From a virus (Duplodnaviria > Caudoviricetes): a DNA stretch of 64,000 bases. Made by a program: the position numbers and the translations under genes. Under the pieces are notes generated by a model. That model saw only the letters and a program-made list of their open reading frames with translations. It was not told where the DNA came from and made no database searches. Below are positions 8,753 through 49,695 of this stretch, one piece after another. The stretch spans positions 1 to 64,000 of IMG/VR virus record IMGVR_UViG_3300032038_000001; one strand, given 5' to 3'. Position 1 is the stretch's first letter; every line of letters starts with the position of its first letter.

Positions 8753-10033
8753 TTAGACAAAACTCGGTAATTGTTTTTTCTTAAATCTGAGTTTATATAC
8801 AACTTCGTTAGAGCCGTCGGTTGATTCTGATTCAACATATGGAACACCAACCCAACTCTGACCAACATGACCCAGTTTCTTATCAAAAACCGGTACATAA
8901 TCTAAGTCAGAAGAAATATTTGCGTTATGATTAAATTCTATAAAAATGGATGGGTCAAACGTTTTTCTAAATGAATATTTATAAGTTACACTAAATTTAG
9001 GTGCAAATATAGGTGATTCTCTTGTCCATGATAAAGAGTCTACTGATATATTAGTTGGAAATAGTCCGTAATACTTTTCCCAGTAAATTATGCTTTCGCC
9101 ATCCTCGGCAGTTAAAATGTAATATACGCCACCAGCATAGTCAAGTATTTTATCAATTATATCAGATGCCTTAGGAAGTATAGTTCCTCTATAACACCCA
9201 CTTATATATTCAATCCATAATTTATGAAGTTGATATATATGTAAAGATCTATCATCTTGAAAATCAATTGTCATTTGACTTGCCGTTTGAGACTCTATAT
9301 TATTTTTACCATATGCTATTTGATGACCTGTGTATGTTTTTCCATAAGTACCATCAGCTAAAAATTCTTCATTTACATTAAAATTTGTTACTTTATTAGA
9401 CAGTGACAACATAAATGTGTCTCTATTTAGTTGACATAACTCATTTAATAGAGATGGAGAATTACGCAAAGCATTAACAAACATTTGATTGTTTGCAAGT
9501 CCACTACTACTCGATAGCGTCGATTTAGTGTCAAGAATGTTACATTTAGGTTTAATAAATATAATGTGACCAAATCCACGAGATAACATATCATCAACAG
9601 TTTGTACTTTAAATCTATTATAAAATTCAGTACTTTTATCCCATTGCCATGTATCAGATTTATATGGGGTATCGTATATATTAAGAGTCTTATGCAACTT
9701 TCTTAAATCATATTCGGAGAATTCAATTTTTGGTGAAATTTGCATAGATTTTAAATCAGAGTTATATTCTGTTTCTCTGTGATTGTTTATCATTTCAGAA
9801 AAAAAACTGCGGTCAAATATAGAGGAACTTCTCGTTTCCTCTTTTAAAACAGTACTTACTGTTTGTGGAGTTTTTTGTTTTTGATATTTATCATTATAGA
9901 ATTCTTTTTCTGAATTTGATAATTCATAATTGAACGCATTTGAGTGATCATTATTATTTGAATCTTTCCATGAAGAGGATGATACCAATCCTGTATTTCC
10001 TGATGAGTTAATATAAGCAATTTTCTTTGCCAT
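8753..10033 (-). CDS. Baseplate/tail-tube-fold structural protein
   Basis: LHKLWIEYI...YYILTAEDGESIIYWEKYYGLFPTNI...FSVTYKY resembles the gp19/gp48/gp54 tube fold; adjacent to the wedge gene; late promoter at 10071-10082. Confidence 0.6.
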   Translation of the reverse strand: MAKKIAYINSSGNTGLVSSSSWKDSNNNDHSNAFNYELSNSEKEFYNDKYQKQKTPQTVSTVLKEETRSSSIFDRSFFSEMINNHRETEYNSDLKSMQISPKIEFSEYDLRKLHKTLNIYDTPYKSDTWQWDKSTEFYNRFKVQTVDDMLSRGFGHIIFIKPKCNILDTKSTLSSSSGLANNQMFVNALRNSPSLLNELCQLNRDTFMLSLSNKVTNFNVNEEFLADGTYGKTYTGHQIAYGKNNIESQTASQMTIDFQDDRSLHIYQLHKLWIEYISGCYRGTILPKASDIIDKILDYAGGVYYILTAEDGESIIYWEKYYGLFPTNISVDSLSWTRESPIFAPKFSVTYKYSFRKTFDPSIFIEFNHNANISSDLDYVPVFDKKLGHVGQSWVGVPYVESESTDGSNEVVYKLRFKKKQLPSFV

Positions 10034-10440: not shown

Positions 10441-11721
10441 TTATAACATTTTGTTTCGTATAAAACCGATAGCTAATGTATTATCCTTTTCTTCTTCGCT
10501 CATATTTGGTACTTTTTTAATTAACTCTTTATAATCATGCTCAAGAGTTTTTTGTATCACTGTTTTACCAACATATTTAGCAGAGAACTCATCAGCTTCT
10601 AGTTCGACAAGTAAATATAAGAGTAAGTCATCATCTTTTAATTTACTTTTATCTGTATCAACAAACCTCAGGTATTTCCTTACTCTTCTTCTTATTTTTT
10701 TATCAAGTTTATATTCGTCACGATAATGAACTGTTCCAAGATGACCATTTATTATGTGCCCATATTCATGATAAAGAATAGCTTCTTGGCTGGCTCTTGG
10801 CATCTTTTTAAAACTCTTATCAAAATATACTCTCGGACTTTTAAATCCCGTAGTAAATTCAGATTCAATATACCTATCAGTTTCATATAAATCAATCTTG
10901 AATCCTAGTATATCAACTGTATCCACTTTAGTTGCATGTTTTTCAATAGTCTCATATTTATATTGTCTTTTGATAACAACTGTATTTGAGGCATCTTCAA
11001 CGGATGACTTCAATACATTATGAATATTCGAAAAAAGAAATTCTACATTTAAAATTAACATATGGGTTTTTGTTTGTATATAAGTCTGTATTGATTTAAT
11101 AAATCTTTTAAATATTCCCAAATGATTCTCATTTATATTTTCAGATTTGTCCAATTTAGAAACAATATCTTTTGTAGATTTAACTATTTTATCAATTTCT
11201 TTGTCAATGTCACTAACCACAGCTTCACAATTTGATAATGCATCAGATATAGTTACGTCATGGATGTTTTTATCAGTGGAATCAATATTTTTATAGTATG
11301 AATTCATTAAATTAGTAATCCATGGTTCATCAAGTTTTTCAATTCTATACGCAATGTTATTACATATTTTAATATCAAAATCAAGATTATCTTTGTAATC
11401 TGAAAATAATCTGTATTTTATTTTTTTCTTTCCTAATTTAGGATTCTTTTTTATCAATCGTTTTATTACTTTAATATTATTATTAATATTTCTTTTATCA
11501 TTATATAAAGAAATTATCCTAACTGCATTATTAGCATAAACCGAAAGAGCATTTATAAAACGTTGAAAAAGAGATTTTATCTTAGTTCCTATGTCTCTAA
11601 CCGATTCAATATATAAATCATGCTCTTCTTCCTTTATTAGAGCAAGCTCGAGCATTTCGTTAAACTGTTCCCTATTTTTAACAAGAAGGATTTCACTTTC
11701 TTGACATATGAAACTACTCAT
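10441..11721 (-). CDS. Inner-head-family protein with C-terminal zincin metallopeptidase domain
   Basis: N-terminal LYIES plus the amphipathic helix of the paralogous family; HEYGH...ELEAD zinc-binding motif. Confidence 0.6.
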   Translation of the reverse strand: MSSFICQESEILLVKNREQFNEMLELALIKEEEHDLYIESVRDIGTKIKSLFQRFINALSVYANNAVRIISLYNDKRNINNNIKVIKRLIKKNPKLGKKKIKYRLFSDYKDNLDFDIKICNNIAYRIEKLDEPWITNLMNSYYKNIDSTDKNIHDVTISDALSNCEAVVSDIDKEIDKIVKSTKDIVSKLDKSENINENHLGIFKRFIKSIQTYIQTKTHMLILNVEFLFSNIHNVLKSSVEDASNTVVIKRQYKYETIEKHATKVDTVDILGFKIDLYETDRYIESEFTTGFKSPRVYFDKSFKKMPRASQEAILYHEYGHIINGHLGTVHYRDEYKLDKKIRRRVRKYLRFVDTDKSKLKDDDLLLYLLVELEADEFSAKYVGKTVIQKTLEHDYKELIKKVPNMSEEEKDNTLAIGFIRNKML

Positions 11722-11815
11722 TGATTTTACCTTCTTTCTAAAAAAAATAATTAATTAACTGTCGTAAAGAAAAAAAATAAGGACGCTGAACTTTTACATT
11801 CAGCGTCCTTGAAAA

Positions 11816-12373
11816 TTATTTTATAAAACACTCGTCAGTTTGAAATTGACGATGATTGATGTTTATAGTGCATCGTCTGCGGTCATCTAACACCTCATCT
11901 TTGGATAGATACTTCCAAACACCTGATATTAAGAACCATCCGTCTTTTAATACACGATCATCCTCATGTATTCGGAAGTTTATCATATCTCCAATAATAT
12001 TTCCTCCATTAGTATCGCACGAATAATTATACCGTAAGTACATATCGAATACTCCGAGCGATTTCCGGATTGCTTCAAAGTCTTTAGCTATTATATGATA
12101 GAAACCAGCATTATTGGCTTTGAATGTTACATCATTGAGCATGTCAGTAACAGTGTCCACCGGAATCCCAGTATATTTTGTGAATTCCGGTTCATCATCA
12201 GCAATGGCATCTGTTTTGTCATCGTTAGTTTCCACTAGCATCGCATCGTTCAGTTTGACATCATCAGAAGCCTCTTCTGGATGCTTTTTACGTCGCATTA
12301 ATGCAAAAATGCTTAATCCAGCGATAATACCAGTAACGCTAAATCCTAATGTTATTTTAGTTCTCTTTTTCAT
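11816..12373 (-). CDS. Early membrane-anchored protein (paralog 1)
   Basis: SD aggagg and ATG at 12373 (MKKRTKITLG...); N-terminal TM helix; shares PEFTKYTGI, AKDFEAIR.SLGVFD and DGWFL.SG.W.YLSKDEVLDD with paralog 2. Confidence 0.8.
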   Translation of the reverse strand: MKKRTKITLGFSVTGIIAGLSIFALMRRKKHPEEASDDVKLNDAMLVETNDDKTDAIADDEPEFTKYTGIPVDTVTDMLNDVTFKANNAGFYHIIAKDFEAIRKSLGVFDMYLRYNYSCDTNGGNIIGDMINFRIHEDDRVLKDGWFLISGVWKYLSKDEVLDDRRRCTININHRQFQTDECFIK

Positions 12374-12397
12374 GATATTGTACCTCCTTGTGTACAT

Positions 12398-12583
12398 ATA
12401 CTCTGTTTTATTGACTGTGGATAACAGAGGGAACGTATAAAAGTTCCGAGAAACCACTTATTGATGTTTATGTAATAATTCATATAAAACTTAACCTGAT
12501 AACTTTGCTATGAAGTTAGGGTAGGTAATTATATATTTTATTACATTAATATGATATATATATGAAAATAAAATTAAGTTTAT
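12398..12583 (-). promoter_or_regulatory. Conserved early promoter + hairpin + pseudoknot leader, copy 1
   Basis: TATATATCAT promoter, long hairpin at 12471-12545 and pseudoknot at 12401-12457. Confidence 0.75.
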
Positions 12584-12723
12584 GGTTTTATAATAAAAAA
12601 ATAGTATACCATATAAAAATCATGTTCTTCTTCATTTATTAGAGCAAGTTTGAGAATTTCGTTTAACTGTTTCCTATTTTTAACAAGAATAATCTCACTT
12701 TTTTGACATATGAAACTACTCAT
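12580..12723 (-). pseudogene. Truncated duplicate of the 5' end of the 10441-11721 gene
   Basis: MSSFICQKSEIILVKNRKQLNEILKLALINEEEHD versus MSSFICQESEILLVKNREQFNEMLELALIKEEEHD, after which it diverges and stops. Confidence 0.8.
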
Positions 12724-12788
12724 CGATTTTACTTTCTTTCTAAAAAAATAAGGACGCTGAACTTTTACATTCAGCGTCCTTGAAAAAT

Positions 12789-13322
12789 TTAAATTATAGA
12801 ACACTCGTTAGTATCATAGAGTCGTTCTCTGCACTGAGCGACACGGATATAGTCATCCAAGACTTCATCTTTGGACAGATACTGCCATTTTCCTGAAACA
12901 AGGAACCATCCGTCATTAGAGACGCAGAAATCCTTTTCTATACGGAAGGATATCATTTCTCCATATACTTTTTCTTTCCAGTACCCGTAGTTATCATGTA
13001 TATAAATATCGAATACTCCAAGTGATTCTCTGATCGCTTCAAAGTCTTTCGCTTCTATATAATAACCATTTCTGTCATTTTTCTTTGTCACCGCATTGAG
13101 CATGTTAGTAACATGCTCCACTGAAATCCCAGTGTATTTTGTGAATTCTGGAACCTGATTTTCCGATGCAGAATCTTTTACATCGTTTGTCATCTCATCT
13201 TCGCTAAACTCAGCATCGAAAGCTTGCTTAGCAAGTTTCCGCTGTTTCAGGATTGTAAAAATAGATAAACCTGAAAGTCCTGCAACGCCAACGCCTATAC
13301 CTATTTTAACTGCTTTTTTCAT
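12789..13322 (-). CDS. Early membrane-anchored protein (paralog 2)
   Basis: SD aaggagg and ATG at 13322 (MKKAVKIGIG...); TM helix; paralog of 11816-12373. Confidence 0.8.
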   Translation of the reverse strand: MKKAVKIGIGVGVAGLSGLSIFTILKQRKLAKQAFDAEFSEDEMTNDVKDSASENQVPEFTKYTGISVEHVTNMLNAVTKKNDRNGYYIEAKDFEAIRESLGVFDIYIHDNYGYWKEKVYGEMISFRIEKDFCVSNDGWFLVSGKWQYLSKDEVLDDYIRVAQCRERLYDTNECSII

Positions 13323-13346
13323 AATAAGTACCTCCTTATTGTACTT

Positions 13347-13530
13347 ATACTCTGTTTTATTGACTGTGGTAAACAGAGGGAACATAGAAGTTCTGAGAAA
13401 CCACATTATTGTTTTTATGTAACATGATATATATAACTTAACCTGATACCTTCACTATGAAGTTAGGGTAAGTTATTATATATCTTATTACACGGAGATA
13501 GTATATATATGAAATTATTAAGTTTACGGT
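13347..13530 (-). promoter_or_regulatory. Conserved early promoter + hairpin + pseudoknot leader, copy 2
   Basis: Same blocks as copies 1 and 3. Confidence 0.75.
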
Positions 13531-13616
13531 TATAAGAATAAAAAATATTATACCATTTTATATTCTGACAAACTTCTATTTAAAGATTCTAATTAGTTAA
13601 AAGGATGGTGAAAAAA

Positions 13617-13877
13617 ATGAGTACAAGTATTATTTCTACACTGGTTGAGTGTAAGAATTATAAAGATAAGATTATTCCAAAGATTACCAGTTCATTAGAA
13701 GATAAGGGATTTAATGTATCATCTTCTTCTAATAATGAGATATTTATCGAAACTGATGATCTAACTAAAATTAATTCTATTATATCTGATATGGATATTC
13801 CATCAGAAGTCAAGAATGTTATTATTGACACTTATAAGACCAAAGAAGGAGTATACATTAGACTTAAGTTTAAGTAA
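13617..13877 (+). CDS. Hypothetical protein
   Basis: ORF with SD and a downstream terminator at 13882-13912. Confidence 0.65.
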   Translation: MSTSIISTLVECKNYKDKIIPKITSSLEDKGFNVSSSSNNEIFIETDDLTKINSIISDMDIPSEVKNVIIDTYKTKEGVYIRLKFK

Positions 13878-13920
13878 AAAAAAGAGCGCTGTATTTATTC
13901 ATACAGCGCTCTTAGTATTT

Positions 13921-14322
13921 TTATTCGTATATCACCCCCTGACCATTAAAGGCTCCAAAGGTCGCGCTTAATACGCGACCTTTGAATTTTTCACCACTAA
14001 ATACTAGTCGACTAGTATTCACTGGCTTTCCCTCTTCTGATACCGATAACGTTATATGTGGAACTGGGATTTTTTCATATAACTCTCTCAGCTGTTCTTT
14101 CAGGTGTTCTTTTGTCTCCCCATAGAGCTCCACGGAGAGACCTTCGTTCTCTCCATCGTTACCATATCCGGTAACAATGAAGAAAGCCTTCTCTCCATAG
14201 AGCTCAGGGTGTGGGTTCTCCGGTCTAAAATCTGTAGTTATATGCTGGTTTTTTACCAGCTTATCCAGAGATCCCTCTAATCCGGATATAAAGAAACCTT
14301 CGTATATTACGTTATTTTTCAT
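13921..14322 (-). CDS. 2H phosphoesterase (two HxT motifs)
   Basis: QHITTDF and PHITLSV about 60 aa apart; SD aggagg and ATG at 14322. Confidence 0.75.
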   Translation of the reverse strand: MKNNVIYEGFFISGLEGSLDKLVKNQHITTDFRPENPHPELYGEKAFFIVTGYGNDGENEGLSVELYGETKEHLKEQLRELYEKIPVPHITLSVSEEGKPVNTSRLVFSGEKFKGRVLSATFGAFNGQGVIYE

Positions 14323-14341
14323 AAGATTACCTCCTGTAATC

Positions 14342-14530
14342 ATACTCTGTTTTATTGACTGTGGTAAACAGAAGGAACATACAAAGTTCCGAGAAACCAC
14401 GTAATTATTTTCATGTAATAATCTATATATATAAAACTTAACCTGATACCTTCGCTATGAAGTTAGGGTAAGATATTATATATCTTATTACACTAAGATT
14501 ATATATACATGAAAAAAATCAGTTTACGAT
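14342..14530 (-). promoter_or_regulatory. Conserved early promoter + hairpin + pseudoknot leader, copy 3
   Basis: Same blocks as copies 1 and 2, but in front of an unrelated gene. Confidence 0.75.
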
Positions 14531-14587
14531 TTTATAATAAAATAAGGGCTTACGTCAGAAAATCTGACGTAAGCCCTTAATAACTTA

Positions 14588-15217
14588 TTACGGATTAAGT
14601 AAGTCTGGATATGTTGCCCAATACTCTGGTTCATCTATTTGATATACTGGCAGTCCTAAAAATGGTTGATTATCATTTACTATTGCATTAATTGTTATTG
14701 TATCAAATGCTTCAGTACTGGTCATTTCAACATACCAGCCGTCTTTTAATTCATGATGATTTTCTATTTTATATATCATCCGAAAACCATAACCCGATCC
14801 TATCATTGGATTATTAAATCCGATTTTTTCAGGTGGATTTTCTGATGTCTTCTCCCAATAAATATAAATAGGACTACATTTTTGTATACGTGATTTAGTA
14901 CGAATCTGTTTCTGGGTATTTATATACCTTACATACTCATCCACAATTTCATCGAGTAATTCTGATGATGACTTATGGTTGTCCCTTTCACAAATATATA
15001 TATATCTTTCCAGCATTACTTTGAGCAAGCCAATATCTTCAATCTCACATTCTTTATTAGCTATTTTTTTAATTAAAAGCTGAAATATTTGATAACGTTT
15101 TTCATCATTGATGAAAATACCCGTTCGTACGAGAGTACTAAAATCAGCCTTATTTAACTCAAACTTTGCACCATCTACTGAACTTACGATTGGAGTACCA
15201 TTTTTTGTCATTTTCAT
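14588..15217 (-). CDS. Hypothetical early protein
   Basis: 209-aa ORF with SD gaaagga and early promoter at 15282-15291. Confidence 0.65.
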   Translation of the reverse strand: MKMTKNGTPIVSSVDGAKFELNKADFSTLVRTGIFINDEKRYQIFQLLIKKIANKECEIEDIGLLKVMLERYIYICERDNHKSSSELLDEIVDEYVRYINTQKQIRTKSRIQKCSPIYIYWEKTSENPPEKIGFNNPMIGSGYGFRMIYKIENHHELKDGWYVEMTSTEAFDTITINAIVNDNQPFLGLPVYQIDEPEYWATYPDLLNP

Positions 15218-40195: not shown

Positions 40196-41068
40196 TCACT
40201 TTGTCAGAGATGAGTCCATGAATTTGTTTATAACCCCTAAGTTCTTCATGAAGATAATATATAAGTCTTCATTATTAACCGCATAAGATATACTCTCTAT
40301 ATTCTTGAGAGTACTATCAATAGTGGAATATTCTCCCCATATTTTAGCTGTTTCATAAGGGTCATCAACGAACGCCTTGTGACAGAAAGGAGCTATTATT
40401 AGATGCTTGTTGCCTATTTTTGTAGCAGCCTCAAAAGTATCACTAATAAGCCTGTTAATAACTTCAAGTCCTGTCGGACGTTCAATACCATCCTTCATAT
40501 ACTTTACAGATGGTTCTGAAATAAGAAGTAGATTAATCTTAAACGGATTTTTACGTATCTTGCCTGTATTATCATCCAAAAATACAAACAGCTGAGGTAT
40601 CATCAGCACGTTAGTAAATGATGTCTTATCATCTTCATTAATCGACTTCCAATCATTTTCAATTTTATCATATACTGCTGCCAATGTTGAAGTTCTCATT
40701 AGAGTACCAACAATTGAATCATCCAGCATATTGAAAATTTCTGTTGCTGATTTTTTATTGACGATATGAACTACCGTCTGGGTGTCAGCATCAGATAACT
40801 TCGAAAGCATTTCACCCATTTTCCACATAGTTGTAAGGTTTGACGTCACGTCAACCATAAATGATGATGAACTAAGGGCTATCTTTTCATTAGTTAAGAT
40901 ACCCTCAATTCTCGAGCATACAGCGTTGTTTAAAGATTCTGAAATAAAGGGTTCGAGAGAAACCTTTTCACCTTTAACAAATTTAACTTTTCCTGACTGC
41001 AAAATTTTTATATTCTGCTGTGCAACAGAATATTCGTCCTTCTTTTTCTTCTTCTTACTCATAAACAT
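40196..41068 (-). CDS. Hypothetical; possible degenerate macrodomain (microbial PARG/DUF2263-like)
   Basis: LMRTSTL, IPQLFVFLDD, INLLLISEP and LIIAPFCHKAFVDDP echo the order of DUF2263 elements, but the catalytic residues are not evident. Confidence 0.4.
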   Translation of the reverse strand: MFMSKKKKKKDEYSVAQQNIKILQSGKVKFVKGEKVSLEPFISESLNNAVCSRIEGILTNEKIALSSSSFMVDVTSNLTTMWKMGEMLSKLSDADTQTVVHIVNKKSATEIFNMLDDSIVGTLMRTSTLAAVYDKIENDWKSINEDDKTSFTNVLMIPQLFVFLDDNTGKIRKNPFKINLLLISEPSVKYMKDGIERPTGLEVINRLISDTFEAATKIGNKHLIIAPFCHKAFVDDPYETAKIWGEYSTIDSTLKNIESISYAVNNEDLYIIFMKNLGVINKFMDSSLTK

Positions 41069-49532: not shown

Positions 49533-49605
49533 GCGTCATTAGCTCATCTGGCAGAGCACAAAACTTTTAATTTTGGGGTACGGGGTTCGAGTCCCCGATG
49601 ACGCA
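49533..49605 (+). tRNA. trnK: tRNA-Lys(UUU)
   Basis: GCGTCAT/ATGACGC acceptor stem; anticodon arm CAAAA-CTTTTAA-TTTTG; GTTCGA T-loop; no encoded CCA. Confidence 0.93.
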
Positions 49606-49609
49606 TTAA

Positions 49610-49695
49610 GGAGAAGTACCCAAGTGGTTGAAGGGTCTGGTCTTGAAAACCAGTAGGCTGTAACAGGTGCAAGGGTTCGAATCCCTTCTTCTCCG
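49610..49695 (+). tRNA. trnS: tRNA-Ser(UGA)
   Basis: GGAGAAG/CTTCTCC acceptor stem; CTGGT-CTTGAAA-ACCAG anticodon arm; long variable arm. Confidence 0.93.

Follow-up and report, generated by a model that had tools for sequence, protein, structure and literature searches.

What is the repeated sequence that stands three times on the minus strand between positions 12398 and 14530 of the phage DNA analysed here, each time ahead of a small gene? This DNA, referred to as the window, comprises the first 64 kb of an IMG/VR virus record (IMGVR_UViG_3300032038_000001; G000 in the coordinates below), which is 250,395 bp long and has a G+C content of about 30%. A preliminary description of the window had proposed that the copies are early leaders with a long hairpin and an H-type pseudoknot just upstream of the Shine-Dalgarno (SD) sequence, and that they constitute a new cis-regulatory RNA. 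The three direct repeats were found where they had been placed. The analysis supports their reading as structured RNAs acting in cis in 5' leaders, and the leader is an uncatalogued RNA family of the triplex-pseudoknot kind in a new setting, the multi-copy leaders of a jumbo phage. Our analysis adds to the earlier one a family of ten copies, a covarying hairpin that carries the SD in its loop, covariation between loop 1 and stem 2 of the pseudoknot, and the phasing of the first hairpin (P1) with the predicted transcription start.

Similarity between the copies extends over about 12371-12600, 13320-13545 and 14320-14542 (-), from the upstream promoter box through the start codon, and every part that had been listed (promoter box, hairpin, crossing stems, loops and SD) could be located in each of them. 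Past the promoter, each copy has a hairpin of 73-77 nt (P1), which is separated by an A/U-rich linker of 10-16 nt from a pseudoknot with the crossing stems GUGG/CCAC (S1) and CUCUGUU/AACAGAG (S2). Loop 1 is pyrimidine-rich and loop 3 is A-rich. An extra hairpin, GGAAC/GUUCC (P2), is inserted at the far end of S2, between loop 1 and S2. The SD hairpin begins two bases past the knot, with AAGGAG in its loop and the last G of the SD in its stem, and the start codon follows 5-12 nt past this hairpin. The SD thus lies 12-15 nt beyond S2 in a separate covarying hairpin and is not part of the knot. The parts of the three copies are the following:

12551-12585 (-), copy 1 promoter: upstream box 12578-12585 (variant CCATAAAC), 8-nt box TATATCAT 12551-12558, predicted +1 G 12544 by analogy with phage AR9 (PMC5312081)
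12472-12544 (-), copy 1 P1, the long hairpin, beginning at the predicted +1
12401-12458 (-), copy 1 pseudoknot: S1 5' strand 12454-12458, loop 1 12448-12453, P2 12430-12447, S2 5' strand 12422-12429, S1 3' strand 12416-12420, loop 3 12409-12415, S2 3' strand 12401-12408
12371-12396 (-), copy 1 region of the SD-in-loop hairpin: hairpin 12379-12396, SD 12383-12388, ATG 12371-12373
13498-13529 (-), copy 2 promoter: CCGTAAAC box 13522-13529, box TATACTAT 13498-13505, predicted +1 G 13491
13419-13491 (-), copy 2 P1, with a minimum free energy of -25 kcal/mol when folded alone
13350-13405 (-), copy 2 pseudoknot: S1 5' strand 13401-13405, loop 1 13395-13400, P2 13379-13394, S2 5' strand 13371-13378, S1 3' strand 13365-13369, loop 3 13358-13364, S2 3' strand 13350-13357
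13320-13347 (-), copy 2 region of the SD-in-loop hairpin: hairpin 13325-13347, SD 13331-13336, ATG 13320-13322
14498-14529 (-), copy 3 promoter: TCGTAAAC box 14522-14529, box TATATAAT 14498-14505, predicted +1 G 14491
14415-14491 (-), copy 3 P1
14345-14401 (-), copy 3 pseudoknot: S1 5' strand 14397-14401, loop 1 14391-14396, P2 14374-14390, S2 5' strand 14366-14373, S1 3' strand 14360-14364, loop 3 14353-14359, S2 3' strand 14345-14352
14320-14341 (-), copy 3 region of the SD-in-loop hairpin: hairpin 14325-14341, SD 14330-14335, ATG 14320-14322
14543-14579, terminator of the gene upstream of the copy 3 promoter

These three copies belong to a larger set. A blastn search within the genome gave nine copies in its 250 kb, and a covariance model built from the nine full copies (R1) recovered exactly those nine, at 115-173 bits, far more than chance would give. 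With a pseudoknot-only model (R2), a tenth, divergent copy consisting of pseudoknot and SD hairpin was found outside the window, at G000 67348-67435 (+); its 5' hairpin is shorter and different, an AR9-like promoter lies ahead of it and an open reading frame (ORF) of about 300 aa downstream. Relatives in rumen and cecum metagenomes carry further copies. Contigs of these relatives were reached via homologues of the copy 2 protein, and more of them via degenerate DNA patterns in viral and metagenome collections. In total, 36 distinct pseudoknot-domain sequences were collected, and this alignment was used for the statistics of the pseudoknot stems.

Both crossing stems keep their pairing by compensatory changes across the 36 homologues, which bears out the H-type pseudoknot. 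S1 has changed on both sides at four of its five pairs (e.g. GC 18 / AU 14 / GU 4 at one and UA 19 / GC 17 at another) and occurs as GUGG/CCAC, AUGG/CCAU, GGAG/CUCC, AGAG/CUCU and AGGG/CCCU. The core of S2 is paired in 100% of the sequences, with one pair found as CG 20 / UA 16 and another as GC 34 / AU 2. The covariation score of the pseudoknot is 0.351, compared to a shuffle mean of 0.167; none of 500 shuffles reached this value, and controls with slid partners scored 0.153 at most. In P1, helices 1-4 show 93-99% pairing; most pairs of the middle helices have undergone compensatory changes, and in the central helix both sides vary at 9 of 10 pairs. P2 and the SD hairpin fold in 36/36 sequences, and the stem of each occurs in more than ten different versions. 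Since G-U pairs are present on the leader strand, and since the antisense strand receives only 23-44 bits from the covariance model versus 115-173 bits for the sense strand, selection acts on the RNA. We thus regard the four-part architecture of the leader and its conservation as close to certain. While the stems drift, several unpaired motifs are strongly conserved, namely GUCAA in loop 3, loop 1, the 5-nt 3' side of the internal loop of P1, and the P1 apex.

Loop 1 consists of six pyrimidines that run parallel to the purine strand of S2, and its sequence follows that of the stem. At its fourth base, a C goes with a facing G-C pair in 19 of 20 sequences and a U with a facing A-U pair in 14 of 14. 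Both the lone C of loop 1 and the lone G of the S2 purine strand sit one position earlier in two leaders, the tenth copy of the genome and that of a relative (L098:5633-5718), and where S2 is longer by two to three pairs, loop 1 is longer by two bases. An antiparallel Watson-Crick pairing of loop 1 with the purine strand was also considered; it fits some of the variants only, whereas the parallel triple register fits all four. Due to this covariation in parallel register, loop 1 is read as a third strand, and the sequences indicate that it would lie in the major groove of S2 as a triple helix of U.A-U and C+.G-C triples. The same features are found in the triplex H-type pseudoknots of telomerase RNA and of the SAM-II, SAM-V and preQ1-II riboswitches, i.e. 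crossing stems, a pyrimidine loop 1 parallel to the purine strand of stem 2, U with A-U and C with G-C, and an A-rich loop 3 across stem 1. The leader matches none of these by sequence or model, and it differs from them in the P2 hairpin between loop 1 and S2, and in its occurrence in ten copies per genome before unrelated genes.

Other structures were considered and set aside. All three genes have in-frame upstream extensions, which prompted a reading of the leaders as coding sequence or upstream ORFs. This was rejected because copies 1 and 2 are in different frames across the knot, indels of 1-2 nt occur in the P2 loops, and substitutions keep the pairing. Pairing of the S2 pyrimidine strand with the SD reaches 4-6 bp at best and is inconsistent across variants, and is thus not supported. 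P2 and the U-rich tract, flagged as terminator-like, are unlikely to be a terminator, as the stems are weak (-1.6 to -8.6 kcal/mol). A kissing contact between P1 apex and P2 loop amounts to 3-5 bp in the main group and is not kept in divergent members.

The leader matched no catalogued family. An Rfam scan of the whole window (Rfam 15, gathering cut-offs) gave only two tRNAs, an adjoining gene pair at 49533-49695 (+) with 64.9 and 61 bits, and permissive scans of 12300-14700 and 13300-13520 with E up to 10 gave only sub-threshold, chance-level matches. The Rfam family cow-rumen-4 (RF02948) shares the habitat and a 3' hairpin with AUAAGGAGG in its loop, which aligns to the loop and closing stem of the SD hairpin; its 5' part, however, is a plain hairpin and not a pseudoknot. 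Membership was rejected, as the copies reach 17.8-20.6 bits with this 64-position model against a cut-off of 48.5, and the best match in the genome (31.2) lies elsewhere. By blastn, one copy found no counterpart among 50,697 phage records, and an exact 20-mer search of viral contigs gave no match either; a 16-mer search gave 22 matches, of which only L022 was genuine. With R1 and R2, no match was detected in the jumbo phages AR9, LPJP1 (Listeria) and Machias (Staphylococcus). No copy was found in a 21-kb relative reached through its DNA polymerase. A degenerate pattern gave 16 matches in GTDB genomes, none of which was confirmed by the model, so that there is no clue to the host from this search.

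All leaders share an 8-nt promoter box, TAYAnWAT, with a CCGTAAA-like box 17 nt upstream (CCGTAAA-N17-TAYAnWAT). The layout of box, six nucleotides and G is present in 33 of 34 leaders. It equals that of the mapped early promoter of the Bacillus phage AR9, AAATATATATTAT-N6-G(+1) (PMC5312081), which serves the virion RNA polymerase, and the start site was predicted by analogy with this layout. In both phages, which share a multisubunit RNA polymerase, an AT-rich box ending in TAT or AAT is followed by 6 nt and a G(+1), but a CCGTAAA-type upstream box is missing in AR9, where the early leaders are short and without structure and neither covariance model gave a match. In 31 of the 34 leaders, pairing in P1 begins with the predicted +1 G itself, and P1 would thus leave no unpaired 5' nucleotide.

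The two-part promoter is almost confined to leader cassettes in this genome. The only other CGTAAA-N17-box-N6-G sites are at G000 164276 (+), 170844 (+) and 171049 (+); at the first of these, the opening GUAAUAAG is the same as in P1 and the knot is absent. Intergenic sites of the AR9-like form TATATATTAT-N6-G are found in the window at 40263, 44075, 45740 and 60780 (-), with about ten more elsewhere in the genome. They carry a weaker, GAAAGGA-type SD and form a second promoter/leader class in the same phage. A consensus scan found no sigma-70-type site at the leader promoters. Extended -10-like sequences, TGGTATACT and TGGTATAAT, are present about 20 nt upstream of the CCGTAAA box in copies 1 and 2, at 12603-12611 (-) and 13547-13555 (-), and also in some relatives; they could represent a second, host-type promoter or the promoter region of a divergent 90-aa ORF at 13605-13877 (+).

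The reading that we prefer, with a probability of roughly 0.45, is that of a cis-acting leader which would shield the message from 5'-end-dependent decay and present its ribosome-binding site. The RNA would start, from its dedicated two-part promoter, at a G that is already engaged in the first base pair of P1, and the leader would act in cis and post-transcriptionally. With P1 flush with the 5' end, neither the pyrophosphohydrolase nor the 5'-exonuclease of the 5'-end-dependent decay of Firmicutes would find a single-stranded entry. The triplex knot, if mechanically stable, would provide a second barrier 30 nt before the start codon and just upstream of the ribosome-binding site; it would also sequester a pyrimidine tract that could otherwise mask the SD, while the last hairpin would hold the consensus SD exposed in its loop. 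In combination, these parts would yield long-lived messages with strong and uniform translation.

There is precedent for such 5' stabilisers in Bacillus subtilis. According to papers listed in PMC3997798, the aprE leader mRNA is stabilised by a 5' stem-loop together with ribosome binding, a polypurine SD derived from phage SP82 acts as a 5' stabiliser, and RNase J1 is blocked by initiating ribosomes. Its SD is likewise of consensus strength (AAGGAGG) and, should the predicted +1 be correct, the leader would also share with them a stem-loop at the extreme 5' end, with no unpaired 5' nucleotide in 31 of 34 cases. It differs from the known stabilisers, which are simple hairpins or SDs with no pseudoknot and no multi-copy family, and its own 5' end is a predicted one. 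The knot might even be a prokaryotic-virus counterpart of the xrRNA and ENE elements by which RNAs of eukaryotic viruses resist decay, but we consider this doubtful. It would then mechanically halt 5'-3' exonucleases of the RNase J type, or a host RNA-targeting defence, shortly before the ribosome-binding site and make a set of takeover messages of the phage selectively immune to host mRNA decay. With the ENE of Kaposi's sarcoma-associated herpesvirus PAN RNA and with MALAT1, the leader would share the U.A-U and C+.G-C major-groove triples of a compact, nuclease-resistant type and, with the former, the viral origin. However, those elements clamp an A-rich tail and protect a 3' end, while the phage element is an intramolecular knot in a 5' leader with a putative protective role.

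Several observations weigh against protection of the message as the purpose of the leader. The start site is taken over from AR9, a phage with only about 27% identity in the RNA polymerase subunit, and the AR9 consensus lacks the extra CCGTAAA box. About 15 other early-type promoters of the AR9-like form in the same genome have short, unstructured leaders, and early leaders of AR9 itself are short and mostly unstructured; when folded, only 5 of 24 had two or fewer unpaired 5' nucleotides. Protection is thus not a general need of early messages, and the structured leader marks a subset of genes rather than early messages in general. Among the relatives, one leader has P1 only, with the SD directly after it (L043:8193-8286), another has the knot without the 5' hairpin (L098:5633-5718), and a third has a short P1 (L084). 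Due to these members without P1 or without knot, neither module can be indispensable. Finally, a plain stabiliser would need no strongly conserved single-stranded motifs, and those in loop 3 (GUCAA), in the internal loop of P1 and at its apex point to a specific partner.

Each leader is followed by one small orphan ORF and then by an intrinsic terminator, resulting in a single-gene cassette, and ten unrelated small genes in the genome are preceded by the leader. In the window, the cassettes contain the following features:

11816-12373 (-), copy 1 cargo: 185-aa orphan with an N-terminal membrane segment, paralogue of the copy 2 cargo
11779-11810 (-), intrinsic terminator of cassette 1, identical to that of cassette 2
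12789-13322 (-), copy 2 cargo: 177-aa orphan membrane-anchored protein, whose homologues in relatives retain the leader
12750-12781 (-), intrinsic terminator of cassette 2
13921-14322 (-), copy 3 cargo: 133-aa orphan unrelated to cargos 1 and 2
13882-13913 (-), intrinsic terminator of cassette 3, a bidirectional hairpin

No Pfam or PHROG family was found for the cargo proteins. The leaders had been suspected to be better conserved than the paralogous genes behind copies 1 and 2, and they are: the leaders are 80-83% identical, versus 67% (nt) and 50% (aa) for the two coding regions. The copy 3 gene is indeed unrelated to the other two (14-20% aa identity). A minor correction concerns the view that most variation falls in the loop of the inserted hairpin or gives a U-G pair, as the first P2 pair of copy 2 is an A-C mismatch and not U-G.

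The cassette also acts as an exchangeable module. Where the window has three cassettes, the syntenic locus of one relative contains two, and in another relative a 248-aa gene, with the promoter boxes kept and a different leader, takes the place of a cassette. The window contains a tandem duplication of about 1 kb, in which a whole cassette and the first 140 nt of the next gene were copied. A 74-aa ORF at 12580-12804 (-) repeats, in truncated form, the 5' end of the 426-aa gene at 10441-11721; between 11604-11815 and 12606-12788, identity is 100% in the terminator and 77-89% over the start of the next gene, and relatives are single-copy here. Directly downstream of the cassettes lie two paralogous 426-aa genes, 8753-10033 and 10441-11721 (-), which are conserved in relatives and one of which has a weak precomputed tail-tube-like Pfam match in the tables of relatives.

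The conserved unpaired motifs suggest a specific partner, and a trans-acting regulator is thus the main rival to the protective cis-acting leader. The leader would then be an operator through which a phage or host factor switches about ten genes jointly during infection, e.g. a translational repressor or activator, a leader-specific endoribonuclease or a ribosomal protein that recognises these motifs. We consider this possible but unlikely. The unpaired positions match the paired ones in conservation even as the stems drift, ten unrelated genes with a common element suit a regulon, and the promoter class is almost exclusive to the leader cassettes. In several sublineages (L064:1473-1558, L106:1569-1656, L108:1477-1563, L098:5633-5718 and the tenth copy at G000 67348-67435), GUCAA is repeated in the P2 loop, and its presence twice per knot may make it a recognition element for a partner. 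However, no candidate binding protein was identified, the modules occur separately in relatives, and conserved loops are also to be expected from tertiary contacts within a triplex pseudoknot, namely those of the A-minor type between loop 3 and S1. The autoregulatory pseudoknot of the T4 gene 32 type is a single element in the leader of the gene for its own binder, whereas the phage leader stands in ten copies before unrelated orphans. A small molecule or ion as the partner appears improbable. The SAM-II, SAM-V and preQ1-II riboswitches share the triplex H-type pseudoknot as a fold class, and an aptamer of the SAM-II or preQ1-II type could tune access to the adjoining SD hairpin. The leader has an H-type knot with a putative loop 1 triplex in the major groove of S2 and conserved loop bases, and the knot adjoins the SD as in the riboswitches. 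In those, however, the SD is in the 3' strand of stem 2, while here it lies outside the knot in its own covarying hairpin. Furthermore, no riboswitch family matched with E up to 10, no conserved alternative pairing (anti-SD or terminator) was found, and the cargos are ten unrelated orphans that form no metabolic pathway.

Quite improbable, too, is a processing element, i.e. a self-cleaving ribozyme or a site for RNase III or RNase Y in P1 that matures the 5' end next to the knot. With its length, its imperfect pairing and its internal loops, the P1 duplex is comparable to the phage RNase III sites of T7 and SP82, and an A/U-rich linker comes after it. Yet P1 is absent from some members, and Rfam scans gave no known ribozyme family. 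A decoy resembling a type III antitoxin, which had been considered in the preliminary description, can be dismissed: there are no tandem repeats and no ToxN-like gene, as the copies are about 950-1000 bp apart with one per gene, and the downstream proteins belong to no Pfam or PHROG family. The proposal of a mobile cassette like the PeSL elements was right in part, in that number and cargo differ between related phages. PeSLs of the T4 type consist of a sigma-70-like promoter and a terminator stem-loop (PMC2839356), and as here, they are repeated promoter-bearing modules flanking orphan genes whose content differs between close relatives. Neither a sigma-70 promoter nor a terminator stem-loop is a conserved part of the leader, though. 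Its promoter belongs to a different type, the stretch after P1 is an A-rich linker and not a U tract, the conserved part is a transcribed leader of 170 nt, and the terminators are separate and differ in sequence. That the element matters mainly as DNA, as a portable promoter and homology block for recombination and shuffling with an incidental RNA fold, is very improbable, even though cassette number and cargo vary at the same locus among relatives and a whole cassette of about 1 kb was recently duplicated in the window. Compensatory or G-U-tolerant substitutions in five helices and the covariation of the base triples show selection on the RNA fold and largely refute a DNA-level role as the sole explanation. 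As shuffling is compatible with an RNA function, such a role would explain the spread of the element, but not its retention.

The source of the window is an uncultured jumbo phage of the cattle gut (rumen) with its own multisubunit RNA polymerase. Among its gene products are a split subunit of this polymerase, tail proteins, a DNA polymerase and an NAD ligase, and homologous contigs derive from rumen and cecum metagenomes. Of the named phages, the Bacillus jumbo phages AR9 and PBS1 are closest to it, with only about 27% identity in the beta' piece. For a more distant, leader-bearing relative (L043 19205-20353), the encoded proteins include one of the tubulin family, gyrase A/B and a split gyrase B with an HNH insert (L049). 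The tubulin-family protein and the gyrase genes hint at a PhuZ-type lifestyle for the clade.

To our knowledge, structured RNA families supported by covariation are rare in phage leaders, and none has been described for jumbo phages that encode an RNA polymerase. The predicted triple-helix pseudoknot of the leader is compact, at about 60 nt, and comes with three-way covariation provided by nature, and under every reading the family merits an entry in RNA family libraries. If a ligand or a protein is bound, it would be the switch of a new regulon. If the leader does protect the message or recruit ribosomes, it may be of use as a portable expression and stability module for Firmicutes. As there are ten copies per genome, the leader is likely to mark a set of takeover genes under common regulation in a clade of uncultured rumen phages, and in the case of message protection or ribosome recruitment it would reveal how these phages prevail early on in the contest for the translation and decay machinery of the host.

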